The notes under the pieces were generated by a model. The model saw only the letters and a list, made by a program, of their open reading frames with translations. It searched no databases and was not told the origin of the DNA. Positions 3,652 through 45,006 of a stretch of DNA of 45,006 nt are shown here, piece after piece (position 1 is the first letter of the stretch; the number at the start of each line of letters is the position of its first letter). Source of the stretch: a virus; the IMG/VR virus record IMGVR_UViG_3300025851_000003, positions 1 to 45,006 of that record; one strand, given 5' to 3'. The translations under genes were made by a program, and so were the position numbers.

Positions 3652-3673
3652 AGCTCGCTATCATAGGCGGGCT
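3652..3673 (+). other. Hairpin AGCTCGC-N8-GCGGGCT abutting a promoter-like -35
   Basis: 7-bp stem with one T-G pair. No U tract follows. The arm sequence resembles the terminator hairpin at 36031-36060 (AGCCCGC...GCGGGCT). Confidence 0.3.
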
Positions 3674-3701
3674 TGACGTGGTGTAACCTTTTGAATATCA
3701 A
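3673..3701 (+). promoter_or_regulatory. Candidate sigma70-like promoter (TTGACG-N17-TATCAA) in front of the amidoligase island
   Basis: Lies in the 91-bp intergenic gap before ATG 3734. A perfect palindrome copy at 3703-3716 follows immediately, in an operator-like position at the predicted start site. Confidence 0.35.
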
Positions 3702-3702
3702 T

Positions 3703-3716
3703 GTAGTCTAGACTAC
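3703..3716. repeat. Palindrome family, perfect copy (16-bp with T...A flanks)
   Basis: Intergenic. Sits just after the promoter-like TATCAA and 17 nt before ATG 3734. Confidence 0.85.
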
Positions 3717-3733: not shown

Positions 3734-4612
3734 ATGACAACTATCGCTTATGATATTGTATACGGTAATGGCAAGACAGTATTCCTAGACTGCGAGCACT
3801 GCTTCGGTAAGCTCAAGCACCTTGAGGAACAAGCGGAATGGTCGGACAAAATAAACTCGCCAAAGATTAACGATGGTGTACAGTTCATTCGCTATTACAT
3901 GGAAGCTAAGTATGAGGACAAGGCAGCGGCGCTTGCATGGTACGAGTACCTGTTATCAACTAAGATATTCGGTGGCTTAGTACTAGGCACCAAGCAATAC
4001 CGCCCAGTTGATATGTTAGAGAATGGCATCAACGTGAGTACACGTGGTCGTCCTTATCACATGCTTAACACACTGTCTATGTATCGTCATGCATATACAC
4101 ACTACCGACAGGTTGACATCTTCCACAAGCTGTTAGGGTTGGGGGTTAACAAGCACATGGCAGCGATTGCAGGTAACTTGCTGGACTATCAAGACAACCG
4201 TAACATAACAACCCTCAAGCATGAGGACGCGGAACATGCAGTGGTATGTCACAACACCTTCACACCGCGTGACTACCAACGGTACGTTGCTATGGCAGAG
4301 GGCACTAAGAAGGTACCGACTAGCCGACACGACCAGAAAGAAAGCTATCGTGTTAAGCCTGAGTATAAGGCGGGCGGTGTGGCTACTTGGTTGACATACA
4401 CGGATGATCGTGATAAGCACAGCGGTAAGGAATTGCTGGGTAACTTGCTGTTAGAGCAGGCATACACAGTACGGTATGACAAAGAGAAGAAAGAGGTAGT
4501 GGACATTATATCTGTTCCTCTCGCTGTAGATAGCAACGATACAGCTGCTATGGCACGGTTAGCCACACAACTGAACAAGTTACACGATGAACTTATCAAT
4601 GATGTAGTCTAA
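3734..4612 (+). CDS. Hypothetical protein (292 aa), first gene of the amidoligase island
   Basis: ORF track. GGAGAGAG upstream. No motif recognised. Its TAA stop lies inside the palindrome copy at 4604-4617. Confidence 0.8.
   Translation: MTTIAYDIVYGNGKTVFLDCEHCFGKLKHLEEQAEWSDKINSPKINDGVQFIRYYMEAKYEDKAAALAWYEYLLSTKIFGGLVLGTKQYRPVDMLENGINVSTRGRPYHMLNTLSMYRHAYTHYRQVDIFHKLLGLGVNKHMAAIAGNLLDYQDNRNITTLKHEDAEHAVVCHNTFTPRDYQRYVAMAEGTKKVPTSRHDQKESYRVKPEYKAGGVATWLTYTDDRDKHSGKELLGNLLLEQAYTVRYDKEKKEVVDIISVPLAVDSNDTAAMARLATQLNKLHDELINDVV
4571..4599 (+). promoter_or_regulatory. Weak promoter-like element (CTGAAC-N17-TATCAA) inside the 3-prime end of the 292-aa gene
   Basis: Has the same TATCAAT..GTAGTC arrangement as at 3696-3716. 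The -35 is poor. Confidence 0.2.
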
Positions 4613-4617
4613 ACTAC
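4604..4617. repeat. Palindrome family, GTAGTCTAAACTAC (1 mismatch)
   Basis: Its TAA is the stop of CDS 3734-4612. Followed by AAAGGA and ATG 4631. Confidence 0.8.
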
Positions 4618-4630
4618 AAAGGATAGAGAG

Positions 4631-5422
4631 ATGAACGCATTAACTGTTGGACATGACGCTGAAGTTTTTGTAACTAACCGAGGTACTATAGCCCATGCTA
4701 TTGGGTTGTTAGGTGGTACTAAGGACGAGCCCTTGCAGGTTGATCAAGGTGCCATACAAGAAGACAACGTGCTAGCTGAGCTTAACATCTGGCCTGCTAC
4801 TAATGCCGATGACTTCGTATCACGTACCAATGTGGTGATGGATGAGATTGTTACACGATTACCTGATGGGTATGACGTACGTGTTCAAGCATCGCATCAT
4901 TACACTAAGCCTGTGCTTATGGCTATGCCTGACCAAGCGTTAGACTTTGGATGTAGTCCAGACTACAATGCATGGACACTGAGTGCTAATGATGTGTCAT
5001 CTCCCTTGACTACACTGCGTACAGCGGGGGGACATGTGCACATAGGGTTCTCACAGGCCGTGACAGCCACCTCACAGGTAGAAGTCATGCGTATGTGTGA
5101 CTACCTATTGGGTCTGCCCTCTGTCCTGTTAGACGATGATGTAGAGCGTCGCTCTTTGTATGGTAAGGCAGGTGCTTACCGTCCTAAAGCATACGGTGCT
5201 GAGTATCGTGTGCTCTCTAACTTCTGGCTGAAGGATGAGGAGTTGATGCGTTGGGTATATGCTCAAGCTGTGTTGTGTCATGATGAGACGCACATGCTAG
5301 ATCACTATGCCTCACTGCCTAACGATGAGCTGATACGTATCATCAATGAGTCAGACAAGGTAGCTGCTGCTCATTGGGTTGAACAATTAGGATTGATAAT
5401 GCCGGAGTCATACCATGTTTGA
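4631..5422 (+). CDS. COOH-NH2 ligase, phage type 2 (GCS2/glutamine-synthetase-like amidoligase family)
   Basis: 263 aa. Recognised from memory of the phiEco32-like COOH-NH2 ligase family through the motifs GHDAE, LLGGTKDEP, QEDNVLAELNI, FGCSPDYNAW, LRTAGGHVHIG, RRSLYGKAGAYRPKAYGAEYRVLSNFWL. Confidence 0.8.
   Translation: MNALTVGHDAEVFVTNRGTIAHAIGLLGGTKDEPLQVDQGAIQEDNVLAELNIWPATNADDFVSRTNVVMDEIVTRLPDGYDVRVQASHHYTKPVLMAMPDQALDFGCSPDYNAWTLSANDVSSPLTTLRTAGGHVHIGFSQAVTATSQVEVMRMCDYLLGLPSVLLDDDVERRSLYGKAGAYRPKAYGAEYRVLSNFWLKDEELMRWVYAQAVLCHDETHMLDHYASLPNDELIRIINESDKVAAAHWVEQLGLIMPESYHV
4953..4966. repeat. Palindrome family, GTAGTCCAGACTAC (1 mismatch)
   Basis: Inside the COOH-NH2 ligase gene, read as S-P-D-Y. 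Confidence 0.75.
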
Positions 5423-5723
5423 AGTAGGGGATATAGTTCAGGGTAAAACTCCCGCTTATCTCGACTACACTATCACCACACATGATGCAACCTTGGAGGT
5501 GGTAGAGGTGAGAGGTCGGAATGTCATGATAGTTAAAGTTGTGCAACATCGCACCCGTCCTGATACCATTGGTAGTAGACACGGTGTCCGGTGTAAGGAC
5601 TTTATCTATCTTGGCACTGCGTGTGATGTTGTAGCGGTGAGTAGTTTAGACTACATGCAATCCAGTGAGCTGTCCGATGTGGATAAGATATTAATAGAGG
5701 GGGCGCTGTCATGTTTAAAGTAG
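5415..5723 (+). CDS. Small-protein paralog P1 (102 aa): variable N-terminal MFxVGD domain plus conserved acidic tail
   Basis: MFEVGDIV... then VSSLDYMQSSELSDVDKILIEGAL. Overlaps its neighbours at a conserved ATGTTTGAAGTAGG junction. Confidence 0.8.
   Translation: MFEVGDIVQGKTPAYLDYTITTHDATLEVVEVRGRNVMIVKVVQHRTRPDTIGSRHGVRCKDFIYLGTACDVVAVSSLDYMQSSELSDVDKILIEGALSCLK
5641..5654. repeat. Palindrome family, GTAGTTTAGACTAC (1 mismatch, synonymous)
   Basis: Encodes SLDY of paralog P1. Confidence 0.75.
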
Positions 5724-6025
5724 GTGATATAGTAGTAGGTAAGAAACTTGACCACCCAGTGTATGGTCTCACCAATCATGAGGCTGTAATGGAGGTGATT
5801 AATACAACAGCACATGGCTCCAATAGGATGAGAGTTAAAATTCTTGTTGCACCACCGCGCAGAGAGGATCAAGTGGGCAAGGATTATCCGGTTGCTAAAA
5901 GACACTTCGAACTCTACATACCTGCACAAGATAAGGTAATAGTGAGAAGTACAGATTACATGGACTGTGATGACTTGTCTGATGAGGACAAGGAGATAAT
6001 AGGGGCGGCGTTATGTTTGCAGTAG
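5711..6025 (+). CDS. Small-protein paralog P2 (104 aa)
   Basis: MFKVGDIV... then VRSTDYMDCDDLSDEDKEIIGAAL. The upstream stop overlaps the start by 13 nt (ATGTTTAAAGTAG). Confidence 0.8.
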   Translation: MFKVGDIVVGKKLDHPVYGLTNHEAVMEVINTTAHGSNRMRVKILVAPPRREDQVGKDYPVAKRHFELYIPAQDKVIVRSTDYMDCDDLSDEDKEIIGAALCLQ

Positions 6026-6291
6026 GTGATAGAGTTGTCCGCACGGTGGCATGGAACTATGCCCGCGGCATGGTTGTAGGTGAGGTTTATACAGTCACGC
6101 ATGTCATCAAACTACGTGAAGGTTCAAGACTACGTTACGTTGAACTGGACGGTATGCTTGGTCTATACAACGCTGAGAACTTCGAGCTAGTACAATCAAT
6201 GACGGTAGTAAGTAGTCTAGACTACATGAATGACACCGTGTTAGATGAGGAAGACAAGCGTATCATAGGAGAAGCGTTATGTTTAAAGTAG
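6013..6291 (+). CDS. Small-protein paralog P3 (92 aa)
   Basis: MFAVGDRV... then VSSLDYMNDTVLDEEDKRIIGEAL. Same overlapping junction. Confidence 0.8.
   Translation: MFAVGDRVVRTVAWNYARGMVVGEVYTVTHVIKLREGSRLRYVELDGMLGLYNAENFELVQSMTVVSSLDYMNDTVLDEEDKRIIGEALCLK
6212..6225. repeat. Palindrome family, perfect copy
   Basis: Encodes SLDY of paralog P3. Confidence 0.85.
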
Positions 6292-6557
6292 GTGATAGCG
6301 TTGTAAGAATCAACAGAAACATGCCACATACCGGAGTGTATGTAGGAGATACGTATACAGTAGCACATTCCGATATGCGGGGTAATATAGGCGTCATAAC
6401 GTTGGTGGGTCTCGGATCGGCTGTGTTCTACTCAAGCAACTTCAAGCTCGGACAGCAATCATTCAGGGTGAATGTAAGTAGTCTAGATTACATGAACGAT
6501 GATACCTTGAGCATTGAAGATAAACAAATTATAACTGAGGCATTGAGTAATGATTAA
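6279..6557 (+). CDS. Small-protein paralog P4 (92 aa)
   Basis: MFKVGDSV... then VSSLDYMNDDTLSIEDKQIITEAL. Confidence 0.8.
   Translation: MFKVGDSVVRINRNMPHTGVYVGDTYTVAHSDMRGNIGVITLVGLGSAVFYSSNFKLGQQSFRVNVSSLDYMNDDTLSIEDKQIITEALSND
6478..6491. repeat. Palindrome family, GTAGTCTAGATTAC (1 mismatch, synonymous)
   Basis: Encodes SLDY of paralog P4. Confidence 0.75.
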
Positions 6558-7164
6558 GGATCGAGAGCTATACACAAGACAGGATACCTCGATGTACCTG
6601 TCTGATTGTATCGTAGGTGTACGCACTGATGAGGGTATCGAGGCACACACTGTACGTGGTGTTGACAGTAGTATACTGCGCTTAGATAATGATCAACGTT
6701 CGTTAGAGATAGACTTCTATGATGAGCGTTTGATACTTGACTGGCCTACACTAGGTGTCGTACAGTTCAGAGGTTTTGTTGGGTACGTCATGACAGAATC
6801 ATTCGATGGTGCATACAAGAAGGGGTTCAACATACGAGGCACCGCACCTATCAAGGTTCCCTTTGCTACCGAGGTTGAGTACATAGGCGAACCATACCTA
6901 TCACACAAGGTACTCAGTGACATGTATGATAACAAGTCGCTCTCATTACAAGAGGCATGTGCCTTGCTTAGTACCCACATATCAGTACGTATTGATCGTA
7001 GCTTCTTTGTTGGTCATAGGTATGGGTATGCCATGCCCTTACTAGGGTATCGAGATAAGGTAGTAGGTGAGGTGCACGGTGATACTGTGATCTTGTTCCC
7101 TTCCTCCGCTCATCTAGCTAGTAAGTTAGAGAGCATAGCAACTGTTGAAATCCACGAGGGTTAG
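6550..7164 (+). CDS. Hypothetical protein (204 aa) inside the amidoligase island
   Basis: ORF track. Overlaps the P4 stop. No motif recognised. Confidence 0.75.
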   Translation: MIKDRELYTRQDTSMYLSDCIVGVRTDEGIEAHTVRGVDSSILRLDNDQRSLEIDFYDERLILDWPTLGVVQFRGFVGYVMTESFDGAYKKGFNIRGTAPIKVPFATEVEYIGEPYLSHKVLSDMYDNKSLSLQEACALLSTHISVRIDRSFFVGHRYGYAMPLLGYRDKVVGEVHGDTVILFPSSAHLASKLESIATVEIHEG

Positions 7165-7168
7165 TACG

Positions 7169-8134
7169 ATGAAGAAGATGTATGAGATATTCGAGAAGGA
7201 TGACGATGCAGTGGGTTGTAATGTATCTCCTTACCTAGTCAGTAACACAATGGTAGGTATTGAGCACGAGTTAGAGGGATACGATACGGAAATAAATGTT
7301 GGTGGTTGGAAGACAGAGCATGATCCCTCTCTACGTAATGGTGGTATCGAGTTCATACTTGATGGCCCTCAAGGTGGTGCTAGGTTAGTAACATCAATCG
7401 AGGCTATGCACAGTATGATTGATAGGCATCCTGAGTTGATAGCCAATGAGCGCACATCAACACACATCCACATAGATGCACGTGATATGACAACACGTCA
7501 GCTATTGAACATGATTGTAGTCTACACTACATTCGAACATGCTATCTTCGCTATGTGTGAGCAGTCACGTACCGATAACAACTTCTGTGTACCATCATAC
7601 AAGAACGGCGGTCTTGCTGACCGTGTACGTAGAGTGCACCTTAACCCTGATAGTGATAGCGCAGTGCATACATTAGCTCACAGTAACTTTCGTTACGCAG
7701 CTATGAACCTGTCAGCTCTGTCACGGTACGGTTCAATAGAGTTTCGTATGAGTGGTACGCTTACTGATAAGGATAAGCTGTTCGATTGGATCAACATCTT
7801 CTTGTCTATCAAGACATTCGCTATGTTGTTAGGCGAGGATGATGTGCAAGATACCATCACTCGTATGAGTAAGATGGAGGCACCACGTCTTACCTCTTTT
7901 ATTTTTGGTGAGAAAATTGCCGAGCTATTTAGTGATAAGGTGAACATGTTTCAGGTGGTAGGTGAGGGGTTGCTACTTGCTAAGCATACATACTGTAGTA
8001 ATGTAGCGTCAGACGCTGATGTATGCGACTATGCACAGCGTTGTGATGTAGAGGCAAGCCCTATACTGGGTGCAATAGAAAGTTTAACAGGCGGTCGTAC
8101 AGACTTCGTTAATTATATGAGAGGTGCAGGATAA
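7169..8134 (+). CDS. Putative amidoligase (Amidoligase_2 / glutamine-synthetase-like fold)
   Basis: 321 aa from ATG 7169 (GAGGG upstream); the track start 7145 is a TTG. Motifs GIEHELE, DPSLRNGGIEF, STHIHID and YGSIEFRMSGT match the putative amidoligase enzyme family as I remember it. Confidence 0.8.
   Translation: MKKMYEIFEKDDDAVGCNVSPYLVSNTMVGIEHELEGYDTEINVGGWKTEHDPSLRNGGIEFILDGPQGGARLVTSIEAMHSMIDRHPELIANERTSTHIHIDARDMTTRQLLNMIVVYTTFEHAIFAMCEQSRTDNNFCVPSYKNGGLADRVRRVHLNPDSDSAVHTLAHSNFRYAAMNLSALSRYGSIEFRMSGTLTDKDKLFDWINIFLSIKTFAMLLGEDDVQDTITRMSKMEAPRLTSFIFGEKIAELFSDKVNMFQVVGEGLLLAKHTYCSNVASDADVCDYAQRCDVEASPILGAIESLTGGRTDFVNYMRGAG
7517..7530. repeat. Palindrome family, GTAGTCTACACTAC (1 mismatch)
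   Basis: Inside the amidoligase gene in the GTA GTC frame. The mismatch turns the would-be TAG into TAC. Confidence 0.7.
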
Positions 8135-9504
8135 TGTGTGGTATCGTAACGGTATTTGGTAAGGGCATGGGCACCACACACGGTGCTATCTTCCATGACC
8201 TACTAATCATTGATCAACTGCGTGGTGTGCATGGTACTGGCATCATCAAGATCAAGAAGAATGGTGAGGCATGGGTACTTAAGGATGGTGTCAATGCATC
8301 TGAGTTACTAGCTGATCCAGCTAACAAGGAGTTTGCTAAGAATGCTAGCACGGCTAACGGTTTCATAGGACACAATCGTTGGGCTACTGTTGGTGCTCAT
8401 ACATCTGACAACTCACATCCATTCACACATGATAACATCTGTATGGTACACAATGGCACGCTTGATGATCAATCTAAGCTAGCCACTGACAAGGATCACA
8501 AGGAGTTCGCTGTTGATAGTGATCAGATAGCCTTCACTCTATCTAAACGTAGCGTAGAGGACACAGTGAAGGCCATTGATGGTGCCTTTGTACTGGCATG
8601 GCATGATGATGAGGACAACTCATTCAACTTTGTACGTAATGATGAGCGTCCATTCCATATAGCTAAGGTGCAGGGACAGGATATCTACATCGGTGCTAGT
8701 GAGGAGTGGATGATACATGCAGCCATTAGCAGACAGAAGGTAGTCTTTGAGATTGACCCACCTAAAGAGTTACCTGTTGGTGTGCATGTTAAGTTCGAGT
8801 TACCTATGCACTACGGTGCGATGGGTGATGTAACCAAGACAACAGTCTCGCTTATGCCTGAGACAGAGAGGTACTGGGCTTCGCTGAGTGCGTACAAAAG
8901 CGCAACCAACTGGAATGGTGGCCAAAGCTCTCGCAGCTATAAGAAATTTCAAGCTCCGAAAGTAGTCCAGACTACACACAAGACGCTATCCTCACAGGTA
9001 GCTGCTGATATGAAGCGCTTGGAACATAAGATTGGTGAGTATGTCGAGGTTGATATGTCACACTTCGAACCATACCCTCAAGCTACTAGTACTGGTAAGC
9101 AGTACGGTGTCATGCATGGTACTGCTATCGTAGCAGGTGGGTTACAAGCTTACGCTGTACATGCAGTCGATCAAGATAAGTTCAAGGAAGGTGCATACAC
9201 TGGCAAGGTAGTGAGTGTGTCGCACAACCTACGTAGAGATGGTGTGCCTCGTGACATGCGTGACATCATTATCTTACATGATGTGACTAAGGCAAGCGTT
9301 TCGCATGATGATGCTTACTTGTATGGCCCGACAGGTGATCTTGTTACAGCTAAGGCATTCAAGATACTAACAGCTGAAGGTTGTATCTGTTGCACATGTG
9401 AGATAACAGAGCAGATGGACACTGATATGTCATGGGATTTCAATGAGCCTGTATGTCCTAACTGTACTGATAGTCTCAAGGGTATGCAAACACTAGCAGT
9501 ATAG
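8134..9504 (+). CDS. Class II (Ntn) glutamine amidotransferase domain protein with unknown C-terminal half and terminal zinc ribbon
   Basis: 456 aa. Begins MCGIV (Cys nucleophile after Met removal). GHNRWATVG...NSHPF...MVHNGTL is typical of GATase type 2. The C-terminal ~230 aa are unassigned and end in CICCTC...CPNC. Confidence 0.85.
   Translation: MCGIVTVFGKGMGTTHGAIFHDLLIIDQLRGVHGTGIIKIKKNGEAWVLKDGVNASELLADPANKEFAKNASTANGFIGHNRWATVGAHTSDNSHPFTHDNICMVHNGTLDDQSKLATDKDHKEFAVDSDQIAFTLSKRSVEDTVKAIDGAFVLAWHDDEDNSFNFVRNDERPFHIAKVQGQDIYIGASEEWMIHAAISRQKVVFEIDPPKELPVGVHVKFELPMHYGAMGDVTKTTVSLMPETERYWASLSAYKSATNWNGGQSSRSYKKFQAPKVVQTTHKTLSSQVAADMKRLEHKIGEYVEVDMSHFEPYPQATSTGKQYGVMHGTAIVAGGLQAYAVHAVDQDKFKEGAYTGKVVSVSHNLRRDGVPRDMRDIIILHDVTKASVSHDDAYLYGPTGDLVTAKAFKILTAEGCICCTCEITEQMDTDMSWDFNEPVCPNCTDSLKGMQTLAV
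8962..8975. repeat. Palindrome family, GTAGTCCAGACTAC (1 mismatch)
   Basis: Inside the amidotransferase gene in the GTA GTC frame. The mismatch turns TAG into CAG. Confidence 0.7.
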
Positions 9505-9603
9505 GAGGCAGCATGTTTATTAGGAACCCATGGTTCATGGAGAGTAGTGTAGTATCATTAACGTTAGACAAATCATTTAAAATATTAGACGGAGAGCTTA
9601 CTG

Positions 9604-10374
9604 ATGAGCAACAAAAAGATTTTTATATTGCCTTACAAGAGTGGCAGCAAGTCAGCCAAGGCACTAGCGACAGCACTGGATTCGAAACGTATCAAATTGA
9701 AGAACTCCCGCTATCGTCCGAGCCAACAACATCTAGTGATCAACTGGGGGAGTCGGGGGGAAACATCGGTCAACTTAGAAGAGAGTGGGTTGCCTTTGTT
9801 GAATCCACCCAGCGCAGTGAGGCTGGCTTCGTGCAAGCTGAAGACATTCCGTTCACTACCTACCGAGGTGGTGCCGATGTGGACAGTGAGCAAAGAGACC
9901 GCAGCAACGTGGATTGGAGAAGGGCTAGTCGTCTGCCGTGGTAAGCTTAACGGTCACAGTGGACAGGGTATTGTGATTGCTTCAACAGTGGACGAGTTGA
10001 TTGATGCCCCCTTGTATGTCAAGTACATTAACAAGAAGCATGAGTATCGAGTACACGTAGTAAACGGCAAGGTGATAGACCAACAACGTAAGATGAGGAG
10101 TCGTAAAGTTGCAGATGAGGATGTCAATTGGAAAATTCGTAACCATTCTAACGGATTTATATTCGGTCGGGAGGGTGTTGATCTCCCACAGGCGGCACTT
10201 GATATGTGTGTCGAGAGTGTTGGAACCCTCGGTCTTGACTTTGGAGCTGTTGACATGGTGTGGAATGAGCGTGATGATAGGTACTATGTACTTGAGATTA
10301 ACACAGCGTGTGGGTTGACAGGTACTACCCTAGAAAAATATGTTGAAGTCTTCAAGGAGATAGCTAATGGCTAA
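9604..10374 (+). CDS. ATP-grasp enzyme (RimK-like / R2K-type small ATP-grasp)
   Basis: 256 aa. Pattern: KLKTFRSL, GLVVCRGKLNGHSGQGIV, YVKYINKKHEYRVHVVNGKV, NHSNGF, GLDFGAVDMVW...YYVLEINTACGL. The final E-x-N matches the metal-binding motif of ATP-grasp ligases. Confidence 0.8.
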   Translation: MSNKKIFILPYKSGSKSAKALATALDSKRIKLKNSRYRPSQQHLVINWGSRGETSVNLEESGLPLLNPPSAVRLASCKLKTFRSLPTEVVPMWTVSKETAATWIGEGLVVCRGKLNGHSGQGIVIASTVDELIDAPLYVKYINKKHEYRVHVVNGKVIDQQRKMRSRKVADEDVNWKIRNHSNGFIFGREGVDLPQAALDMCVESVGTLGLDFGAVDMVWNERDDRYYVLEINTACGLTGTTLEKYVEVFKEIANG

Positions 10375-10657
10375 TGCAATGTGTTGCTCGGTTGGTGATG
10401 CGATAGGCCATTCGTGGGATGGCAACAGATGGTTGGTTGAATCAACAATGGCAATTGGTGTCACGGTACGGCGTATACTAGAAGATGGCAAGCTGGCTGG
10501 TCGGGCTATTCCGGTATACAATTATACGTTAAGGGGAATGGTTATCTTCGAACACGCAGGGGTGCCATCGGCTCTAACAGTAAGTAGTCTGGACTACATG
10601 AATGATGATGAACTGTCTGATGAGGATAAGGACATAATAGCGAGGGCTTTGGCATGA
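10367..10657 (+). CDS. Small-protein paralog P5 (96 aa)
   Basis: ..CSVGDAIG... then VSSLDYMNDDELSDEDKDIIARALA. Overlaps the ATP-grasp stop. Confidence 0.8.
   Translation: MANAMCCSVGDAIGHSWDGNRWLVESTMAIGVTVRRILEDGKLAGRAIPVYNYTLRGMVIFEHAGVPSALTVSSLDYMNDDELSDEDKDIIARALA
10584..10597. repeat. Palindrome family, GTAGTCTGGACTAC (1 mismatch, synonymous)
   Basis: Encodes SLDY of paralog P5. Confidence 0.75.
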
Positions 10658-10947
10658 TGGTTAGTGCATCGTATTGTAAAGTTGGTGATGTGCTAGGTTA
10701 TACCAATAGAGCTTATCGATGGAAGGTTACGAGCGTAAGAGAAGGTGGTGTAACACTACGTCGTATACTAAGCGATGGTAGGCTAGATGAATTCTTATCC
10801 TACCAAGTCAATCGTAAGTTAGCTCCAATGTTTATCTATGAACACGCAGCTCCTTCGTCAGCTGTAACAGTGAGTAGTCTAGACTACATGAGCGATGACA
10901 ACCTATCTAATGAAGACAAACAAATAATTAAAGAGGCACTACTATGA
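10654..10947 (+). CDS. Small-protein paralog P6 (97 aa)
   Basis: ..CKVGDVLG... then VSSLDYMSDDNLSNEDKQIIKEALL. ATGA coupling on both sides. Confidence 0.8.
   Translation: MMVSASYCKVGDVLGYTNRAYRWKVTSVREGGVTLRRILSDGRLDEFLSYQVNRKLAPMFIYEHAAPSSAVTVSSLDYMSDDNLSNEDKQIIKEALL
10874..10887. repeat. Palindrome family, perfect copy
   Basis: Encodes SLDY of paralog P6. Confidence 0.85.
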
Positions 10948-11321
10948 AAGATTCTACATTGGTTGGCGTGTATGGTTCCTTACGTAAGGGCTTAAGCAAT
11001 CACCACTACCTGCAGAACGCTGAGTTTGTTTCAACTACTGAGTTACCTGCTGTGTATAGCATGGTATCTCTTGGTGGATTCCCCGGTGTCATGGAGGGAG
11101 GTGATACTAAGATCATGCTTGAGATGTATCGTGTCACACCTGATGAGCTAGCTAATCTCGATAGTCTAGAAAGCAATGAGAGCTTCTACACTCGTAAGGA
11201 AGTAGATACCCTTGGGGGTAGCACTCCTTGGGTTTACTTTCTCCCTAGAGAGAAGTGGATAGACAATGAGCCTGTACCTAGTGGTGATTGGAAACTATTC
11301 TTGGAGCATCGTTATGCTTAA
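10944..11321 (+). CDS. Gamma-glutamyl cyclotransferase-like protein (GGCT/AIG2 family)
   Basis: 125 aa. The N-terminal VGVYGSLRKGLSNHHYL is the YGSL-x(2)-G-x(2)-N signature of the family. The size is typical. Confidence 0.75.
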   Translation: MKDSTLVGVYGSLRKGLSNHHYLQNAEFVSTTELPAVYSMVSLGGFPGVMEGGDTKIMLEMYRVTPDELANLDSLESNESFYTRKEVDTLGGSTPWVYFLPREKWIDNEPVPSGDWKLFLEHRYA

Positions 11322-11637
11322 GGTAGGTGATAGAGTTAGAATGAGGGCGTCTACTACTATCTATCATGAATGCTATAACAATCCTCGTGGCGTGGATGGT
11401 GTTGTTGTCTCGGTACTTCTTAGTTGCCGAGACGATGGTCATAGTTATAGCGTGCGTTGGGACAACGGTTATACAAACAGTGCATACAGATGGGGTAGAG
11501 ATATTTCTCGGTCGCCACGTGATAACACGGTCGTGATATGCAGTTCATCGTATCAGTCATGTGCTACCCTTGATGAGGAGGATAAAGAAATAATTAAAAA
11601 TAAGTTGAACCTTTTAGAAACTGCACTGTCTAATTAA
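11314..11637 (+). CDS. Small-protein paralog P7 (107 aa), divergent tail with C-terminal extension
   Basis: Start moved to ATG 11314 (GGAG upstream, junction ATGCTTAAGGTAGGTGATA). MLKVGDRV... then CSSSYQSCATLDEEDKEIIKNKLNLLETALSN. The last ~15 codons are also promoter copy A. Confidence 0.75.
   Translation: MLKVGDRVRMRASTTIYHECYNNPRGVDGVVVSVLLSCRDDGHSYSVRWDNGYTNSAYRWGRDISRSPRDNTVVICSSSYQSCATLDEEDKEIIKNKLNLLETALSN
11605..11634 (+). promoter_or_regulatory. Conserved promoter copy A: TTGAAC-N18-TCTAAT with A-rich upstream tract, ahead of the primase-helicase gene
   Basis: -35 at 11605-11610 and -10 at 11629-11634. The same hexamers, spacer length and AAAAATAA upstream tract recur at 32510-32539 and 44645-44674 on the other strand, each time pointing into the downstream gene. 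Confidence 0.6.
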
Positions 11638-11721: not shown

Positions 11722-13413
11722 ATGGCTGGTCGGCCTTATGAAAAAATAGAGGGAGGTTGTACTGCCTGTGGTGGTTCGCCTCAAGTCTTTGAACAAGATG
11801 ATGGTACGTTTGATTCGTACTGTTACAAGTGTGGTCATGTTGATGATGATCCTTATGGTGAGGGTAAGGCTACTAAGGGAGAGCCACCTAAACGTTTAAC
11901 ACCTGAGCAACTGGCTGCTCAACTACAGGAGATAACAGATGACATGCCAGTACGTGACATACCTGATCGTGGATTACGTAAGGGTGTGTTAGCTTACCTT
12001 GGTATACGTGTTGCAGTTAGTCAGACTGATGGTAAGACTATCCACTCACACTACTACCCAACAGAGATCGATGGAGTGATCACAGGGTATGAGGTAAGAC
12101 GTTGTGATCCTAAAGGTTTCTATGCTATGGGTCAACGTAAGGGTGCTGATCCTTTCAACTGGAAGAAGGCAATGGAAGAGATAGGTAAGGGGCAACGTGA
12201 TCTAATCATCGTTGAAGATGCACTGTCCTGTGCCTCAGTCATCCAAGAGTTCCGTGCTGCACAGAAGGGTACGCAGTATGAGAAGAACATACCTGCTGTG
12301 ATTGCATTACCTATGGGTGCTCAGTCAGGGTTGAAATGTTTAGAGGGTAAGGGTGATCAACTACGTATGGTTGACCGCTTCATCTTCTGCTTAGATCAAG
12401 ATGCAGCTGGTGAGGAAGGCACTCGTAAGCTAATCACCTTGTTAGGACAAGAGAAGTGTATGGCTGCTAAGCTCCCACTTAAAGATCCTAACGACATGAC
12501 AATGGCAGGACGTGGTGCTGAGTTATTCACTGCATTGAAATGGAAGTCACAAGCTGTACGTAATGATGGTGTGAAGGATGCATCGGATTACTTTGATGAT
12601 GCAGGTAAGAAGGCTGAGTGGGGATTGTCGTGGCCTTGGCCATCGGCTACTACTGCCACCTTTGGTATACGTACTGGTGAGATACATATCGTTGGTGCTG
12701 CACCTAAGATTGGTAAGACGGATCACCACTATCAAGTAGCTGATTGGTTGGTACGTGAACACAAGGAGACAATCGGATTGTTTACCTTCGAGTTCTCTGG
12801 TGCCAAGGCAATGAAGATGATAGCTGGTAAGGCAGCACGTAAGCCATTCCATAGACCTGACGTTGAGTACACACCAGCTGAGTTACAAGAAGCTATGGAG
12901 TTATTCAGGGACAAGGTTAAGATCTATGACAGTCGTCAAGACAGGGACTGGCAGTGTGTTAAGGATGCTATCACTGGTATGAGTATACATGATGGAGTTA
13001 AGTACTTCTTCATTGATCCTCTTACTGCATTGATTAGTAGTGTTAGTGCTAGTGAGGCTAACGATAGGTTGAACATGATCATGACTGATCTTGCTAAGCT
13101 TACTGCTGATCTAGGTTGTACCTTCTTTGTATACACACACGTTAACCCTGTTGGTAAGGGCACACCACATGAGCAAGGTGGTCGTGTACTAGCTGGACAG
13201 TTCACAGGGTCACGTGCTATGGAGAAGTGGGCACACTATGGTTGGGGTATCAGTCGTGATCGATTGAATGAGGACGAGGTAGTACGTAATACTTCTACCT
13301 TGGAGATGTTGTTCGATAGAGAGTTCGGTAACACATGCCGCTTCCCTCTCATCTATGATCCATCAACTGCTACCTTCGGGGAGCAATCATACACAGCAAG
13401 CGAGGACTTCTAA
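11722..13413 (+). CDS. Bifunctional DNA primase-helicase (T7 gp4-like)
   Basis: 563 aa from ATG 11722 (AAAGAGGAG upstream). Zinc ribbon CTACGG..CYKCGH, TOPRIM-like IIVEDALS and CLDQDAAG, Walker A GAAPKIGKTD, DnaB-type helicase C-terminal half. Confidence 0.9.
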   Translation: MAGRPYEKIEGGCTACGGSPQVFEQDDGTFDSYCYKCGHVDDDPYGEGKATKGEPPKRLTPEQLAAQLQEITDDMPVRDIPDRGLRKGVLAYLGIRVAVSQTDGKTIHSHYYPTEIDGVITGYEVRRCDPKGFYAMGQRKGADPFNWKKAMEEIGKGQRDLIIVEDALSCASVIQEFRAAQKGTQYEKNIPAVIALPMGAQSGLKCLEGKGDQLRMVDRFIFCLDQDAAGEEGTRKLITLLGQEKCMAAKLPLKDPNDMTMAGRGAELFTALKWKSQAVRNDGVKDASDYFDDAGKKAEWGLSWPWPSATTATFGIRTGEIHIVGAAPKIGKTDHHYQVADWLVREHKETIGLFTFEFSGAKAMKMIAGKAARKPFHRPDVEYTPAELQEAMELFRDKVKIYDSRQDRDWQCVKDAITGMSIHDGVKYFFIDPLTALISSVSASEANDRLNMIMTDLAKLTADLGCTFFVYTHVNPVGKGTPHEQGGRVLAGQFTGSRAMEKWAHYGWGISRDRLNEDEVVRNTSTLEMLFDREFGNTCRFPLIYDPSTATFGEQSYTASEDF

Positions 13414-13877
13414 TGATTACTAGTCGAGACATAGTACTGGCATTGGGTGTGGGTGTGTGCTTAGGCATGGCATACGAGGCTAACGCAGAGGAGAAACATC
13501 ATGAGGTTAACGTAGGCTTCTACACTAAGCACCTAACAGGCGATACGTCTGAGTTAAACGAGACTAACAACATCGTAGCTTATACGTACCATCAACTGAC
13601 AGAGCCTTACGAGTGGCACATGACGTACTCAATTGGCGACTTCTCTAACAGTCATGATGTGGCATCTAATTACATAGGTGTTGGTTATAACAAGACAGTA
13701 TTCAACGGTGCTGGCAGTTACGGTATGTCTGTGTTAGCAGTGAATGGTTACGAGGGACACGTAGCTACCATGTACAAGGGCTTGGTGTTCATGCCTGTCC
13801 CTACTGTACGGTATCACTGTGTATCAGGTGCCTTGTTTGGTAATGTTGTTATCGGTACAGTATCTATTAACTTTTAA
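13413..13877 (+). CDS. Secreted protein with features of a small outer-membrane beta-barrel (Lom/Ail/PagL-like architecture)
   Basis: 154 aa. N-terminal signal-like LALGVGVCLGMAYEANA. Alternating-hydrophobicity strands such as VNVGFYTKH, NIVAYTY, NYIGVGYNK, YGMSVLAVNGY. C-terminal ...VSINF ends in Phe. The family assignment is tentative. Confidence 0.55.
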   Translation: MITSRDIVLALGVGVCLGMAYEANAEEKHHEVNVGFYTKHLTGDTSELNETNNIVAYTYHQLTEPYEWHMTYSIGDFSNSHDVASNYIGVGYNKTVFNGAGSYGMSVLAVNGYEGHVATMYKGLVFMPVPTVRYHCVSGALFGNVVIGTVSINF

Positions 13878-13892
13878 GAGGATTGATTATGA
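13867..13892. repeat. 26-bp perfect direct repeat TTAACTTTTAAGAGGATTGATTATGA (copy 1)
   Basis: Identical to 14285-14310. Covers the last codons and stop of the upstream gene, the SD, and the ATG of the next gene. Confidence 0.9.
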
Positions 13893-14281
13893 AGAAGCAT
13901 ATACACTGTGATATTATTAAAGCATTTGCCAAAGGTGAGCGGGTGCAGGTGTTGAATCTGAGTGGGAATTGGAAAGGGGTAACTGACCCTGCCTTCAACC
14001 CTGACTTAACGTATCGTATAGTACCTGACTGTGAGGCCAAGCATGTACATCATTATGCTATGTTGGCATGGGCAGATGGTCACGAGATACAGTGCCTTCT
14101 TTCGGAGGGTACACCTAAAGAAGTTTGGAGAGATACACCGAGTCCTACCTTCGCTGCCTACTTAAATTATCGTGTCAAGCCAGCTGTCAGCGAGAAGGTT
14201 GCGTTGATGGAGGAGATGGAGGAACTACTGGAACGTATGAAGAAGTTGGAGAAACAGTATGACGAAGCATTTGCACTGTGA
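13889..14281 (+). CDS. Hypothetical protein (130 aa) with two internal ~45-aa repeats and a C-terminal coiled coil
   Basis: ATG 13889 with AAGAGGA upstream. Internal duplication visible (IKAFAKGERVQ..W..DPAFNPDLTYRIVP versus MLAWADGHEIQ..W..TPSPTFAAYLNYRVKP). Confidence 0.7.
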   Translation: MKKHIHCDIIKAFAKGERVQVLNLSGNWKGVTDPAFNPDLTYRIVPDCEAKHVHHYAMLAWADGHEIQCLLSEGTPKEVWRDTPSPTFAAYLNYRVKPAVSEKVALMEEMEELLERMKKLEKQYDEAFAL

Positions 14282-14602: not shown

Positions 14603-16596
14603 TCTTTGATTGGGAAGCTAATGGCTTACTCGAAGAGGTTACTACTGCTCACTGCTTTGTTGGGATAGACGTAGGTAGTGGGGAGAAGTTTGAATCATAC
14701 ACTGGACAGGAGGATTGGATACAACGTAGTCTAGACTACATGGATACAGCAAAGGTATTGGTAGGACATAACATCATCGGTTATGATCTACCTATGCTTA
14801 AGAAGTTATACAACTGGAAGCCTAAGCCTGATGTACAGATAGTTGATACGTACATACAGAGCAGGACGCAGCATCCTGATAGACGCAGACCATTCAATAT
14901 GAAAGGTAAGGGTGGACCACATGGTCTTGATGCTTGGGGTTACAGAGTTGGTAGAGGTAAGCCATCGTATGATCAATGGGAAACATTCGACATGGAGATG
15001 TTACACCGTTGCTCAGAGGATGTAGCTATCAACGTACTAACCTATAAGAAGTTATGCGAGGAAGGTGGACAGGAGATACTAAACTTCTGGTGGTGTGGCG
15101 CACCATGGAACAAGTCGTTACGCTTAGAGCAGACGGTACAGACGTTCATCAATGAGATGGAGATCAATGGTTGTCCTGTTGATCAACCTCAGATGGAAGA
15201 ACGTATCGCTGACCTGACTGCTATGATGAATGAGATTGAGCGCGAGATCTTACCTGACATACCAAAGAAGATTAGTATGCACGGTGTCGTAGTTAGTAAG
15301 CCCTTCTTGAAGAATGGTGGTCTAGCTAAGATGACAACTGATTGGACTGATGAGGATGTAGGTGGCCCCTTCAGTCGTGTCAAGTTCACACCATTGAACC
15401 TTGGCTCAGAGAAACAAGTGAAGGAATACCTACTTAGTATTGGTTGGATACCTACTGAGTATAACTTCAAGAAGGTAACACAGATAGAACATGATGATCC
15501 ATCATCACCTTATCACGGTCAACCTGTTAAGAGAGAGGCCAAGGATAAGGATGGTAACAAGGTAAGGGCTGGCCCTAAGCTTACAGAGGACTCCTTCAAG
15601 TCGTTGAAGAGTGATGTCGGTAAGAAGATTGCTAGCTACTTACAACGTAGCCACCGTAGAAGCTTACTAGAGGGACTTGTTAAACGTATCCGACCAGACG
15701 GTAGGATATCACAAGGTATCACTGGTATCGCATCGACAGGACGCTACAAGCACACAGGTATTGTTAACATCCCAAGCACAGGATGGTATGGACATGAGAT
15801 TAGATCTTGTTTCGTATCACCTACTGGCTACAAGATGATCGGTACTGATGCAGCTTCATGTCAGTTACGTATGCTAGCTCATTACATGGGTGATGAGGAG
15901 TACATACGAACAGTATGTGAGGGTGAGGAAGCGATTGAACAACCAGATAAGACAGAGATCTACGTAGGTACTGATGTGCATACACGTAATGGACTGGCTG
16001 CTGGCTTGATTAATCCTGACTGGGTAGAACATTGTAAGGGTAAGTTCATACATGACCTTGCTCATGATGACATATATAATGTCCTCTCATACAACAGACG
16101 GTTAGCTAAGAACTTTATCTACGGTCTACTCTTTGGTGCTGGTGATCCTAAGATTGCTGATACCTTGGGTGTGACAGTACGTAAGGCTAAACAGATACGA
16201 GCTACCTTCATGGCTGGGTTGCCTGCACTAGCAGCGCTACTTGCTAAGCTTGATAAGGTATACAAAGAGAGAGGTTATGTTGTTGCACCTGATGGTCGTA
16301 AGCTATATGTACGCTCAGCACATATGATGCTAGTGTATCTCCTACAAGGAGCAGAGGCTACGTTCATGAAGGTTGCATGGTGTTACCTTAACAATGGTGT
16401 TGCGAAGGCTGGACTTGATGTTCAGAAGGTCATGTTTAATCATGATGAATTCCAAGACCTTGTTGCAGAGAAAGATGTTGATGCCTACATGGACATTGCG
16501 AAGGACGCATTCGTACGTGCTGGTGTTTACTTAAAGTTTAAATGTCCCACTGCTGGTGGCCCGAAGGTTGGGTTGTCATGGTATGAGACACACTAA
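14593..16596 (+). CDS. Family A DNA polymerase with 3-prime-5-prime exonuclease domain (T7 gp5-like)
   Basis: 667 aa. Exo motif LVFDWEANGL, motif A GTDAASCQLRMLAH, motif B RRLAKNFIYGLLFGAG, motif C NHDEFQ. Confidence 0.92.
   Translation: MYLVFDWEANGLLEEVTTAHCFVGIDVGSGEKFESYTGQEDWIQRSLDYMDTAKVLVGHNIIGYDLPMLKKLYNWKPKPDVQIVDTYIQSRTQHPDRRRPFNMKGKGGPHGLDAWGYRVGRGKPSYDQWETFDMEMLHRCSEDVAINVLTYKKLCEEGGQEILNFWWCGAPWNKSLRLEQTVQTFINEMEINGCPVDQPQMEERIADLTAMMNEIEREILPDIPKKISMHGVVVSKPFLKNGGLAKMTTDWTDEDVGGPFSRVKFTPLNLGSEKQVKEYLLSIGWIPTEYNFKKVTQIEHDDPSSPYHGQPVKREAKDKDGNKVRAGPKLTEDSFKSLKSDVGKKIASYLQRSHRRSLLEGLVKRIRPDGRISQGITGIASTGRYKHTGIVNIPSTGWYGHEIRSCFVSPTGYKMIGTDAASCQLRMLAHYMGDEEYIRTVCEGEEAIEQPDKTEIYVGTDVHTRNGLAAGLINPDWVEHCKGKFIHDLAHDDIYNVLSYNRRLAKNFIYGLLFGAGDPKIADTLGVTVRKAKQIRATFMAGLPALAALLAKLDKVYKERGYVVAPDGRKLYVRSAHMMLVYLLQGAEATFMKVAWCYLNNGVAKAGLDVQKVMFNHDEFQDLVAEKDVDAYMDIAKDAFVRAGVYLKFKCPTAGGPKVGLSWYETH
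14726..14739. repeat. Palindrome family, perfect copy
   Basis: Inside the DNA polymerase gene, read as R-S-L-D-Y-M. Confidence 0.85.
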
Positions 16597-16621
16597 GATT
16601 AATTATTGGAGAACAAATAAT

Positions 16622-17320
16622 ATGACTGCTACTAAATCTACTTACGTACCACCTGAAGCTCGTGAACATGAAGCTCGTTTCGTACACGTTGTATGTGCTG
16701 GTAAGCATACACCTAAGAACGATAAGTTCAACAAGGGTAGCACACCTCGGCTGTACATTACCTATGAGTTAGTTGATGAACAGAAAGAGGATGGTATGAA
16801 CAAGTGGTTGCAAGGTTTCAACTACCAACAACCAATGAATAACTACGGTGGTGAGCGAGGGGGTCGCTTCGATCTGCTGAATAAGATGGGCTTCTCATCT
16901 AATGAGGATGAGGATTTAAAGTCCTTACCTAACATGCAGTGCTGGGTTGGTGTGACACACAGTGAGTGGCAAGGTAAGACGTACGCTAACATGGGTACAC
17001 TTAATCGTTGTAGTCCACGTGACGGAGAGTTCGCACCATTACATAACCCTGCTGTCTTCTTTGATGCATACAACCCAGTGGTTGAGGATTGGAACAACCT
17101 TCCTAAATGGATTAAAGACTACTGCTTAGAAGCAGATGATGCAGATGAAACAGGTATTAAGGAGTTCGCAGATGAAGCACGTAAATCTTACAAGCCAACG
17201 GATGACACAGGATCAATGCAATCAGTACAGGGAGCGGCTAGCGGAGCGGTTAGCGGGTCAGGCAAAGCAGCACCCGCAGCTGTGGCCGGAGATGACGATG
17301 ACGAAGACGTCCCATTCTAG
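16622..17320 (+). CDS. Single-stranded DNA-binding protein candidate (acidic C-terminal tail)
   Basis: 232 aa from ATG 16622 (GGAG upstream). Ends in GDDDDEDVPF, the acidic-tail-plus-Phe pattern of bacterial SSB and T7 gp2.5. Position between polymerase and exonuclease supports the call. Confidence 0.65.
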   Translation: MTATKSTYVPPEAREHEARFVHVVCAGKHTPKNDKFNKGSTPRLYITYELVDEQKEDGMNKWLQGFNYQQPMNNYGGERGGRFDLLNKMGFSSNEDEDLKSLPNMQCWVGVTHSEWQGKTYANMGTLNRCSPRDGEFAPLHNPAVFFDAYNPVVEDWNNLPKWIKDYCLEADDADETGIKEFADEARKSYKPTDDTGSMQSVQGAASGAVSGSGKAAPAAVAGDDDDEDVPF

Positions 17321-19001: not shown

Positions 19002-19348
19002 TAGTAGTACCAGTTAAACCCATGTCACAGAACAAGGCGTACCTTGGACGTAAGACAAAGAGTAAGGACTACAGGTTGTATACGGGCAACATCGTTGACA
19101 TCCTACCACCTTATGACATCCCAGAGGGAGAGCTAGACTTAAAAGTAAACGTATACTACAGTAATAGAGCAGCTGACATAGACAACTGCTTGAAACCATT
19201 CATCGACATCTTACAATTCCACTATGGCTTCAACGATAACAAGATATATCACCTAGATGTGACCAAGTTGATCGTGCCCAAGGGACAGGAAAAGTTAGAG
19301 TTCGAATTCAAACCATATATAGCAGCAGAGGTACAGCCTAATGCGTAA
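18998..19348 (+). CDS. RusA-like Holliday junction resolvase
   Basis: 116 aa. Size and the AADIDNCLKPFIDIL acidic motif fit the RusA family. Located in the replication/recombination block. Confidence 0.6.
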   Translation: MIVVPVKPMSQNKAYLGRKTKSKDYRLYTGNIVDILPPYDIPEGELDLKVNVYYSNRAADIDNCLKPFIDILQFHYGFNDNKIYHLDVTKLIVPKGQEKLEFEFKPYIAAEVQPNA

Positions 19349-21213: not shown

Positions 21214-21707
21214 TGAGTAAGAAATATAAGGGTTGTGGTGTACTAGATGAGTTTACTGGGTGTATCATTACACCTGAGTCTCTACTAGATAGGGTAACTA
21301 AGGGGAAGAAGCACTTCTACTTGAATAAGTCTGTGACTGTAGGTATATGGCACAGGTACAAGGGTAAGGATGTTGAGGAGTTCATCACCATACCTTCTTC
21401 GTACAGTTGGGACGGGGCTAGTATCCCCTCTCTCTTCACTTGGTTGATAGGTGAGAAGTTAGCACCTGAGTTTGCATTAGCTAGCATGGTACATGACTTC
21501 TTGTATGAGAGATTGTATCATAAGCCTACAGCAGACGCTATCTTCTTTGATTTGCTACAGGATACGAAGTTTAGGGACATACCACCTTGGAAAGAGAAGT
21601 GTATGTTCGCAGCAGTAACACTATTCGGAGGTAAGGATTACCCTATCTCTGCTAAACATAAGAGTTGGAGGGATAATCGTTGCAAGATAGTAAAGTCGGT
21701 CGTTTAA
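21213..21707 (+). CDS. DUF1353-like protein (164 aa)
   Basis: SYSWDGASIPS...ASMVHDFLY matches the DUF1353 signature as I remember it. Confidence 0.55.
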   Translation: MSKKYKGCGVLDEFTGCIITPESLLDRVTKGKKHFYLNKSVTVGIWHRYKGKDVEEFITIPSSYSWDGASIPSLFTWLIGEKLAPEFALASMVHDFLYERLYHKPTADAIFFDLLQDTKFRDIPPWKEKCMFAAVTLFGGKDYPISAKHKSWRDNRCKIVKSVV

Positions 21708-44879: not shown

Positions 44880-45006
44880 AATTAGTCGACAGTAGTCTCC
44901 TTCTCATAATTCCTCTGAGATATTTTTAAGGTGCTAAGAACACAAGCGTCCCGGCCCCTGCCCCCCATACACGCCCTTTATGGAAGTAGCCACTAACATT
45001 GATTTG
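44880..45006. repeat. Terminal duplication, right copy (identical to 1-127)
   Basis: Exact direct repeat of bases 1-127. Either an assembler overlap marking circular closure or a genuine short direct terminal repeat. Confidence 0.95.

Follow-up and report, generated by a model that had tools for sequence, protein, structure and literature searches.

A podophage amidoligase cassette interleaved with a family of small, predicted SH3-like proteins whose shared tail appears to be dual-coded

Podophages of several groups (phiEco32; LUZ24, PaP3, tf and UFV-P2; ΦRIO-1 and HP1; PA11 and O4; CW02) carry an operon of amidoligases and associated enzymes on their early/middle strand. This enzyme combination was reportedly flagged by Iyer et al. 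in 2009 (Mol Biosyst) as a modification system of peptide, γ-glutamyl or cell-wall type, and is said to have been flagged again by Hardies et al. in 2013 (J Virol), in both cases with no known substrate. Later papers link the operon to γ-glutamyl amide bonds or to unusual peptide bonds, with no function assigned, and present it as a hypothesised "peptidoglycan modification cassette" that would act in superinfection exclusion (PMC5498523; PMC10580990); our literature search found no report of an experimental function, substrate or product for the cassette. Here we analysed IMG/VR virus record IMGVR_UViG_3300025851_000003, positions 1 to 45,006 (the window), which represents a marine podophage and contains in its early-gene region a block at positions 3734–11637 (7904 of 45,006 nt, ~18% of the window) where such enzymes are interleaved with seven small paralogous genes, P1–P7. 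A preliminary description of this DNA, which had pointed to the earlier flagging, correctly as judged by the later citing papers, regarded the acidic tails of the P proteins as candidate substrates of the enzymes. Our analysis points instead to a known cassette joined by a previously undescribed protein family, and we consider it somewhat better than an even bet that this family has an accessory role early in infection and is not the obligatory substrate of the cassette, with a tail that would be dual-coded.

To judge from sequence and gene order, the enzyme set is the already described podophage amidoligase or γ-glutamyl-amide operon and not a new one; the block agreed with operons of the phiEco32/LUZ24/ΦRIO-1 type in every sequence and synteny comparison used to assign membership. 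A search with the ATP-grasp ligase returned 315 phage records, the best from Zobellviridae (Salinivibrio phage CW02, 56%; Citrobacter phage CVT22, 53%), with further relatives in Klebsiella phage Klyazma, Erwinia phage Pecta, Pseudomonas phages O4 and PA11, Pseudoalteromonas phage HP1 and Vibrio phages. The cassette lies directly upstream of the primase/helicase gene in CW02, CVT22, Klyazma, Pecta, T2S1, T5S1, O4, KIT05, HP1 and Vibrio phage 275E43-1. Its shared content comprises an unknown protein of ~290 aa or longer, a COOH-NH2 ligase, an unknown protein of ~190–200 aa, an Amidoligase_2 protein, a class II amidotransferase with its extra C-terminal domain, an ATP-grasp ligase and often a GGACT protein. 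Synteny was seen in 10 GenBank phages, seven metagenomic contigs and the gene table of UFV-P2, and the gene order in the window is the LUZ24-like order (UFV-P2 ORF19–31). The window has the same seven proteins on the early/middle strand as the described operons. It has no class I glutamine amidotransferase (GATase), a protein found in many of the related phages, among them CW02, the Citrovirus phages and O4, and it differs further in the seven P genes added at gene junctions and in a 14-bp palindrome specific to its clade. The features of the block and of the region just upstream are as follows, in window coordinates.

3672–3698, plus strand: possible sigma-70-like promoter, TTGACG-N17-TATCAA, read by eye upstream of the block; weak
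3703–3716, no strand: perfect 14-bp palindrome GTAGTCTAGACTAC; the ATG at 3734 is 17 nt downstream
3734–4612, plus strand: 292-aa conserved cassette member with no assigned fold or function
4604–4617, no strand: palindrome copy with 1 mismatch; it overlaps the 292-aa gene's stop codon, and the ligase ATG is 13 nt further on
4631–5422, plus strand: COOH-NH2 ligase type 2 (GCS2-like), PF14395, phrog_3815
5415–5723, plus strand: P1, small protein with a predicted SH3-like barrel and a composite tail; palindrome at 5641–5654
5711–6025, plus strand: P2; palindrome degenerate
6013–6291, plus strand: P3; perfect palindrome at 6212–6225
6279–6557, plus strand: P4; palindrome at 6478–6491; AlphaFold2 (AF2) model with barrel at residues 1–57 and helices at 68–72 and 79–91
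6550–7164, plus strand: 204-aa conserved cassette member, phrog_11055
7169–8134, plus strand: Amidoligase_2, a glutamine synthetase (GS)-like amidoligase, PF12224, phrog_7469; palindrome variant at 7517
8134–9504, plus strand: class II, N-terminal nucleophile (Ntn) glutamine amidotransferase with an unassigned C-terminal half, GATase_6/7, phrog_4736
9505–9603, plus strand: 99-nt gap, possibly a collapsed P gene; low confidence
9604–10374, plus strand: ATP-grasp ligase of a divergent RimK-like clade, phage family phrog_2599
10367–10657, plus strand: P5; palindrome at 10584–10597
10654–10947, plus strand: P6; perfect palindrome at 10874–10887
10944–11321, plus strand: GGACT/AIG2-like γ-glutamyl cyclotransferase, PF06094, with YGSLR motif
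11314–11637, plus strand: P7, the most divergent paralog; tail without the palindrome and without an end constrained by a Shine-Dalgarno (SD) sequence

All open reading frame (ORF) coordinates given previously were confirmed, as was the existence of seven paralogs with a conserved acidic tail, which align over their full length. The earlier statement that nearly all junctions overlap held for 9 of the 13 internal junctions (overlaps of 1–13 nt), with gaps of 4, 18 and 99 nt elsewhere; the spacing from P7 to the primase gene is 75 nt. Promoters proposed at 3673 and 11605 were not recovered, since a sigma-70 scan found none there and fewer sites than in shuffled sequences. No match to the block was obtained among GenBank phages by megablast.

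Profile searches with Pfam and PHROG bore out the five enzyme assignments. The product of 4631–5422 matched PF14395 COOH-NH2_lig (3.8e-12, 46.4 bits against a 25-bit cut-off) and phrog_3815 (3e-87), that of 7169–8134 matched PF12224 Amidoligase_2 (1.3e-10, 42 bits against a 22-bit cut-off) and phrog_7469 (6e-55), and that of 10944–11321 matched PF06094 GGACT (3e-20). The class II amidotransferase begins with MCGIV, which carries the Ntn cysteine of this class, and matched GATase_6 over residues 72–177 only (1.3e-12, 48.3 bits; 72–188 for GATase_6/7 together); phrog_4736 spans its full length (2e-89), and its PDB matches are GlmS and PurF N-domains only. The C-terminal half, which ends in a zinc-ribbon-like CxxC...CxxC, had no Pfam match. 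The ATP-grasp ligase matched phrog_2599 (6e-88) and has the ExN motif LEINT, but its Pfam RimK score of 17.1 bits fell under the 21-bit cut-off. The best PDB match of this ligase in a single-sequence search was the graspetide ligase CdnC (1.8e-4), whereas its family profile found RimK structures first (4iwx and 5zct, E about 1e-4), with RimK at 1.3e-4 and CdnC at 0.05.

The two remaining shared proteins are, to judge from their conserved positions, cassette members and not fillers. Homologs of the 292-aa protein hold the same cassette position in T5S1, O4, HP1 and the contigs L011–L018, and in the Citrovirus phages the homolog forms the C-terminal part of ~465-aa proteins, fused to a ~170-aa N-terminal extension. 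The family has invariant W36, Y72, R118 and H168 and yielded a confident AF2 model (predicted local distance difference test, pLDDT, 80; predicted template modelling score, pTM, 0.83). No Pfam or PHROG match was found for the 292-aa protein, its homologs carry no precomputed Pfam domain, and neither Foldseek of the model against PDB nor the family profile against PDB sequences gave a match or anything significant, respectively. Orthologs of the 204-aa protein always lie between the COOH-NH2 ligase and Amidoligase_2 genes in 13 other phages; this family matched no Pfam family, and its profile gave nothing significant against PDB sequences. Profile classification of the 292-aa, 204-aa and C-terminal amidotransferase regions, suggested in the preliminary description, found no Pfam family for any of them. 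In the LUZ24-like UFV-P2, two ~285-aa ORFs occupy the position that corresponds to the 292-aa gene, a correspondence in position.

P1–P7 share the start M-F-K-V-G-D, in which M1, V4, G5 and D6 of the alignment are invariant, and the tail V.VSSLDYM.DD.LS.EDK.II..AL (an example peptide is SSLDYMNDDELSDEDKDIIARAL), which a six-frame scan found nowhere else in the 45-kb window. Their C-terminal residues vary (K, Q, K, D, A, L and N, respectively). Profile searches with the family recovered 64 homologs, all metagenomic, and an exhaustive search of 1.84 billion representative proteins found ~75 small full-length members (90–116 aa) together with ~35 large proteins that match the P N-terminal domain only, as repeats. 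By these searches the tail-bearing family is narrow and previously undescribed. Any given Pfam family matched at most 1 of 63 members, P7 alone among the seven matched PHROGs, of no assigned function, and nothing significant was found with the family profile in PDB sequences or with P5 in GenBank phages by tblastn. A degenerate DNA pattern for the tail had 0 matches in IMG/VR and hit one 1-kb TARA contig in JGI metagenomes. Each of P1–P7 has its own orthologs in other contigs at 40–70% identity (those of P7 are P0007 and P0014), which indicates that the paralogs are old and individually maintained.

AF2 modelling from a 63-sequence alignment (pLDDT 85) predicted an SH3-like barrel over residues 1–57, a linker of lower confidence, and a tail in which SLDYM forms a short helix and EDK.II..AL one of 13 residues. 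Foldseek matched the barrel in BFVD with probability 1.00 and E values down to 8.6e-5, in PDB to YorP, Spt5-KOW, SH3 and Tudor domains, and also to phage SaV-like and DUF4314 proteins; the matches took in many phage proteins that are uncharacterised, including a DUF4314 protein of CW02. Small SH3-like phage proteins often occur as multi-copy early genes. The P proteins would resemble this group (SPβ YorP, 2heq; DUF4314; SaV-like) in the predicted five-stranded barrel of residues 1–57; they differ in the helical tail and its embedded palindrome, which are specific to the P clade, and in having no Pfam model.

Part of the tail coincides with the palindrome GTAGTCTAGACTAC, which was first seen in two intergenic regions and, with up to 1 mismatch allowed, is present 13 times in the window, compared to 0.01 in shuffled sequences. 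The copies start at 2934, 3703, 4604, 4953, 5641, 6212, 6478, 7517, 8962, 10584, 10874, 14726 and 22840, so that 12 of 13 fall within the first 15 kb. Five form the codons AGT AGT CTA GAC TAC (S-S-L-D-Y) of P1, P3, P4, P5 and P6; the perfect intergenic copy at 2934–2947 overlaps the stop codon of the upstream gene, the 3703 copy sits just after TTGACG-N17-TATCAA, and others fall within the genes for the ligase, the amidoligase, the amidotransferase and DNA polymerase, with one more at 22840. The in-frame variant at 7517 in Amidoligase_2 (VVYTT) is conserved in position in 5 relatives. Across eight phages there are 61 sites, 24 of which are intergenic or overlap a stop codon, mostly 5–59 nt ahead of the next start, and 26 of which read as xSLDY; the 10 sites in the other frame each carry a central mismatch (GTC CAG or GTC TAC, giving VVQTT or VVYTT) that removes an in-frame TAG. 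Metagenomic relatives have conserved the palindrome, with near-loss in contigs L017 and L018, which keep the tails; none of the ten GenBank relatives (Zobellviridae) has it.

Codon statistics over 40 tails separated two halves. Codon choice in the first half was strongly skewed (Ser AGT in 32/33, Leu CTA in 25/28, Asp GAC in 29/33), which argues that it is constrained as DNA. Full synonymous variation at invariant residues in the second half argues for selection on the peptide: the invariant Leu uses six codons, both invariant Ile residues use all three, Asp is GAT in 30 and GAC in 10, and Lys is AAA in 26 and AAG in 13. The invariant Tyr is TAC in 18 and TAT in 22. That L017 and L018 retain their tails after near-loss of the palindrome likewise suggests that the tail peptide has a function of its own. 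The last 4–5 codons overlap the SD and, in P1–P3, also the 13-nt ATGTTTAAAGTAG that starts the next paralog. By this codon evidence the tail is dual-coded, the SSLDY half being a palindrome footprint and the L..EDK.II...L half a genuine peptide motif. Hairpin stability around the palindrome did not exceed that of shuffles and so does not support an extended hairpin or an element of the RNase III type; our preferred reading is a DNA site bound by a protein, or else a minimal RNA operator. Short inverted repeats between early cistrons, near variable small genes, are familiar from the RNase III sites of T7, the promoter–early stem-loop (PeSL) cassettes that flank shuffled small genes in T4-type phages, and λ boxB. 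The element described here shares this placement; it differs in being just 14 bp long, in often lying in coding sequence as SLDY, and in lacking hairpin stability above that of shuffles.

Within the clade, the P genes were strongly associated with the cassette. All seven metagenomic relatives with enough context had the same layout as the window. A hidden Markov model (HMM) of the tail identified 42 tail-bearing ORFs in eight phages, 38 of them between the COOH-NH2 ligase and the primase; the other four lay 2–3 kb upstream in the early region, and in these eight phages the model found none after the primase or on the other strand. The slots recur: after the COOH-NH2 ligase gene, after the 200-aa gene, on either side of the ATP-grasp gene and after the GGACT gene. 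In O4, KIT05, T5S1 and 275E43-1 the cassette genes are contiguous and free of tail-sharing small genes, the orthologous ATP-grasp gene is not accompanied by tail-bearing small genes, and neither a tail nor an 11-mer was over-represented in the four genomes. UFV-P2 has few small genes within its cassette. The link to P proteins is thus not obligatory, because homologous cassettes exist without the tail-bearing family; nor is any cassette protein specific to the P-bearing clade. Homologous islands that consistently lack the small proteins and sit next to nucleotide or cell-wall precursor genes were what the preliminary description had named as telling against its proposal; this was borne out in part, by the cassettes without the tail-bearing family. 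Within the P clade the family keeps to the cassette. The sequence of the 99-nt gap at 9505–9603 starts ATGTTTATTAGG and translates as MFIRN...SSVVSLTLDKSFKILDGEL; with low confidence, it is possibly the remnant of a collapsed P gene, and in contigs L012 and L016 the slot holds an intact one.

Sister phages carry small genes in the same slots with tails of another kind. In CW02 (L001), CVT22 (L002), T2S1 (L003), Klyazma (L006) and Pecta (L010) these slots are occupied by small genes, and in the last four the HMM of the P N-terminal domain matched slot genes with LENx tails. Each sister phage has its own C-terminal tail (LLEENV, LENE, MENE, LENK or LEND) on 8–17 small early/middle ORFs with unrelated N-terminal types, one of which starts with APEWATH, and in CW02 and the Citrovirus phages such tails also occur among the primase, sigma-factor, polymerase and exonuclease genes. 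The DNA of these tails, (C/T)TG GAG AAT GAx TAA TG, combines SD, spacer and overlapping stop/start, and in the form TGGAGAATGA(A/T)TAATG, which includes the SD, supplies the top over-represented 11-mer of each genome. Where nothing is coupled downstream the peptide is kept with SD-breaking synonymous codons (CTC GAA, CTA, TTA), indicating some peptide-level selection on these tails as well. Tails are uniform within each sister genome (concerted evolution), and the Pecta exonuclease itself ends in the clade tail (…ILENE). In HP1 (L008) three small ORFs (7375–7683, 12855–13145 and 13797–14051), one inside the cassette and two far outside, share the tail (V)IGIPSLKG.IFG, after which come acidic residues. 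The related contigs L012 and L016 have an excess of TATATATATAT runs, with 7–8 copies of the 11-mer.

Taken together, these results suggest that the block superimposes two things, a conserved amidoligase cassette and seven anciently diverged SH3-like paralogs placed in its junctions, each with a variable barrel and a constant tail of ~27 residues. The known chemistry of GCS2/GS-like ligases, ATP-grasp enzymes, Ntn amidotransferases and GGACT proteins suggests that the carboxylate-amine ligases would build an amide-linked (γ-glutamyl or peptide) product from glutamine-derived ammonia or glutamate, and that the cyclotransferase would trim it by removing γ-glutamyl groups. Because the same cassette occurs in phages of Pseudomonas, Vibrio, Klebsiella, Citrobacter and other hosts without P proteins, its target is probably common to many Proteobacteria and could be a metabolite, a cell-wall precursor or a host protein. 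The palindrome, whose in-frame reading gives the first tail half (T-V-S-S-L-D-Y), would mark early-gene junctions, typically 5–59 nt before the next start, and is probably a DNA or RNA regulatory site. The second tail half, L-x-x-E-D-K-x-I-I-x-x-x-L, is predicted to form an acidic amphipathic helix that most likely docks all paralogs to one partner, and the variable barrels may give each paralog a different specificity; the SD, together with the next gene's overlapping start, would limit the last 4–5 codons. The P genes may have spread by tandem duplication at junctions, as supported by the 13-nt overlaps between P1–P4, and their products may or may not interact with the cassette enzymes.

Several observations weigh against regarding the P proteins as accessory and the palindrome as a regulatory site. 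The strongest is that confinement to the cassette, combined with translational coupling, would fit a functional link better than chance insertion. The invariant tail residues include Ser, Asp and Lys, types on which ATP-grasp enzymes and amidoligases act; GGACT enzymes cleave ε-(γ-glutamyl)-lysine; and the single-sequence CdnC match of the ATP-grasp ligase is a weak similarity in the same direction. RNA folding around ten palindrome copies gave stems of 5–6 bp only, with z from −1.6 to +1.7, and a Pfam search of ten early small ORFs for a DNA-binding protein that might recognise the palindrome found nothing. On balance the enzymes and the association of the small genes with the cassette, as proposed in the preliminary description, were upheld, and the role of the tails as substrates was not.

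A bolder combination of these elements is unlikely but deserves statement: the P proteins would be SH3-like carriers or adaptors whose helix, with the invariant Lys or Asp as its reactive site, is bound by a ligase, possibly modified, and reset by the GGACT enzyme, the palindrome being independently a new early-operon control element. Scarcely less likely is an adaptor role, in which the constant helix would hold P proteins on one cassette component (a ligase, the 204-aa or the 292-aa protein) and the variable barrel would recruit differing targets, widening or steering the modification. A variable domain joined to an invariant tail, seven paralogs each maintained with orthologs, genes confined to the cassette and coupled to its members, and a helix under peptide-level selection are all consistent with docking, and optional presence across clades would suit accessory subunits; the tail genes of CW02 and the Citrovirus phages that lie among primase, sigma, polymerase and exonuclease genes, and the lack of any cassette protein particular to the P-bearing clade, argue against it.

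More doubtful still is that the P1–P7 tails are made by the ribosome as dedicated substrates for the three ligases (ATP-grasp, COOH-NH2 and GS-like), undergoing glutamylation, amidation, γ-glutamyl-lysine isopeptide formation or Ser/Lys–Asp/Glu crosslinking that GGACT would reverse. This reading, close to the preliminary comparison with ribosomally synthesized and post-translationally modified peptides, draws on the interleaving and translational coupling of P and ligase genes, the 38/42 family members inside the cassette, a tail in which D, K and Y are invariant and S nearly so, and the weak similarity of the ATP-grasp ligase to the graspetide ligases CdnC and MdnC. It fared poorly because the cassette is conserved in many phages lacking such proteins, the ATP-grasp family profile is closer to RimK than to CdnC, sister tails occur among replication genes, and the P proteins are predicted to be folded SH3-like domains and not leader-core peptides; moreover, the Ser-Ser-Leu-Asp conservation is largely explained by the palindrome, and variable C-termini leave no fixed site for RimK-type C-terminal extension, which was rejected on that ground. 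It is very improbable that the tail is nothing but the 5′ regulatory region (palindrome, spacer, SD and start) of the downstream gene with a functionless peptide, as the palindrome and SD/start overlap inside the tail and the SD-containing top 11-mer of sister clades might suggest, given that every synonymous codon occurs at the invariant L, D, K, I, I, L and Y, L017 and L018 tails survive palindrome loss, and sister tail peptides persist with SD-breaking codons. A tail serving purely as a ribosome-binding-site cassette was rejected, being largely refuted by the codon statistics.

Elsewhere in the window, the first 127 nt (1–127) are duplicated exactly by the last 127 nt (44880–45006), owing either to overlap in a circular assembly or to a short terminal repeat in direct orientation; the unique genome is ~44.9 kb. 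Directly after the primase/helicase gene lies a 154-aa ORF (13413–13877) with no Pfam match, in a slot that holds a sigma-70-family factor gene in CW02, CVT22, Klyazma and O4. Other genes encode a single-stranded DNA-binding (SSB)-like protein with the C-terminus DDDDEDVPF and no Pfam match (16556–17320), a calcineurin-like phosphoesterase (19341–20108), a phage lysozyme (20509–21213) and a DUF1353 protein (21213–21707). The HslV-like peptidase proposed at 21894–22325 (starting MTTIAY) proved borderline, scoring 22.8 versus 22.4 bits for Proteasome over the N-terminal 50 residues only. PADLOC returned no match for any of the cassette proteins.

What is new relative to the known cassette is thus an undescribed small-protein family and a palindromic junction element that appears dual-coded. 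The amidoligase cassette fills 10–18% of many podophage genomes (Bruynoghevirus, Kuravirus including phiEco32, Zobellviridae), and Bruynoghevirus, the LUZ24-like phages, are used in Pseudomonas phage therapy. A P family with one invariant helix would offer an experimental handle on the cassette, whether its members are clients, adaptors or bystanders, and the carrier/adaptor reading, if true, would give this widespread set of phage enzymes its first defined protein client. The palindrome held in frame within coding sequence would make a clean natural case of dual coding in which DNA and peptide functions are separable. It also cautions that a "near-invariant peptide tail" in phage paralogs can partly be the shadow of a nucleic-acid element.

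Three known systems of protein or peptide modification invite comparison. Glutamylation of S6 by RimK shares the ATP-grasp fold with its ExN motif and the RimK structures found first by the family profile; it differs in that the phage ligase falls below the Pfam cut-off and forms its own family, phrog_2599, and in that P1–P7 have no ...EE C-terminus. Graspetide loci (microviridin, chryseoviridin; MdnC/CdnC) likewise place an ATP-grasp gene beside several small genes sharing a Ser/Asp/Glu/Lys-rich segment. In contrast, the P proteins are predicted to be folded with the conserved part at the C-terminus, the locus has no leader, protease or exporter, the phage ligase occurs without P genes in many phages, and the motif is partly constrained as DNA. 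The Pup–PafA/Dop–proteasome system resembles the window in combining GS/GCS2 carboxylate-amine ligases, small proteins and a proteasome-like Ntn hydrolase, here encoded elsewhere in the genome. It differs in that no GGQ/GGE C-terminus is present, the cassette ligases matched PF14395 and PF12224 and not the Pup-ligase family in Pfam, the P proteins are predicted to be folded, and the HslV-like match is borderline. By these sequence comparisons the cassette is not a RimK/S6 system, a graspetide locus or a Pup system; by analogy, it may nevertheless work like one of them, through protein modification by carboxylate-amine ligases.

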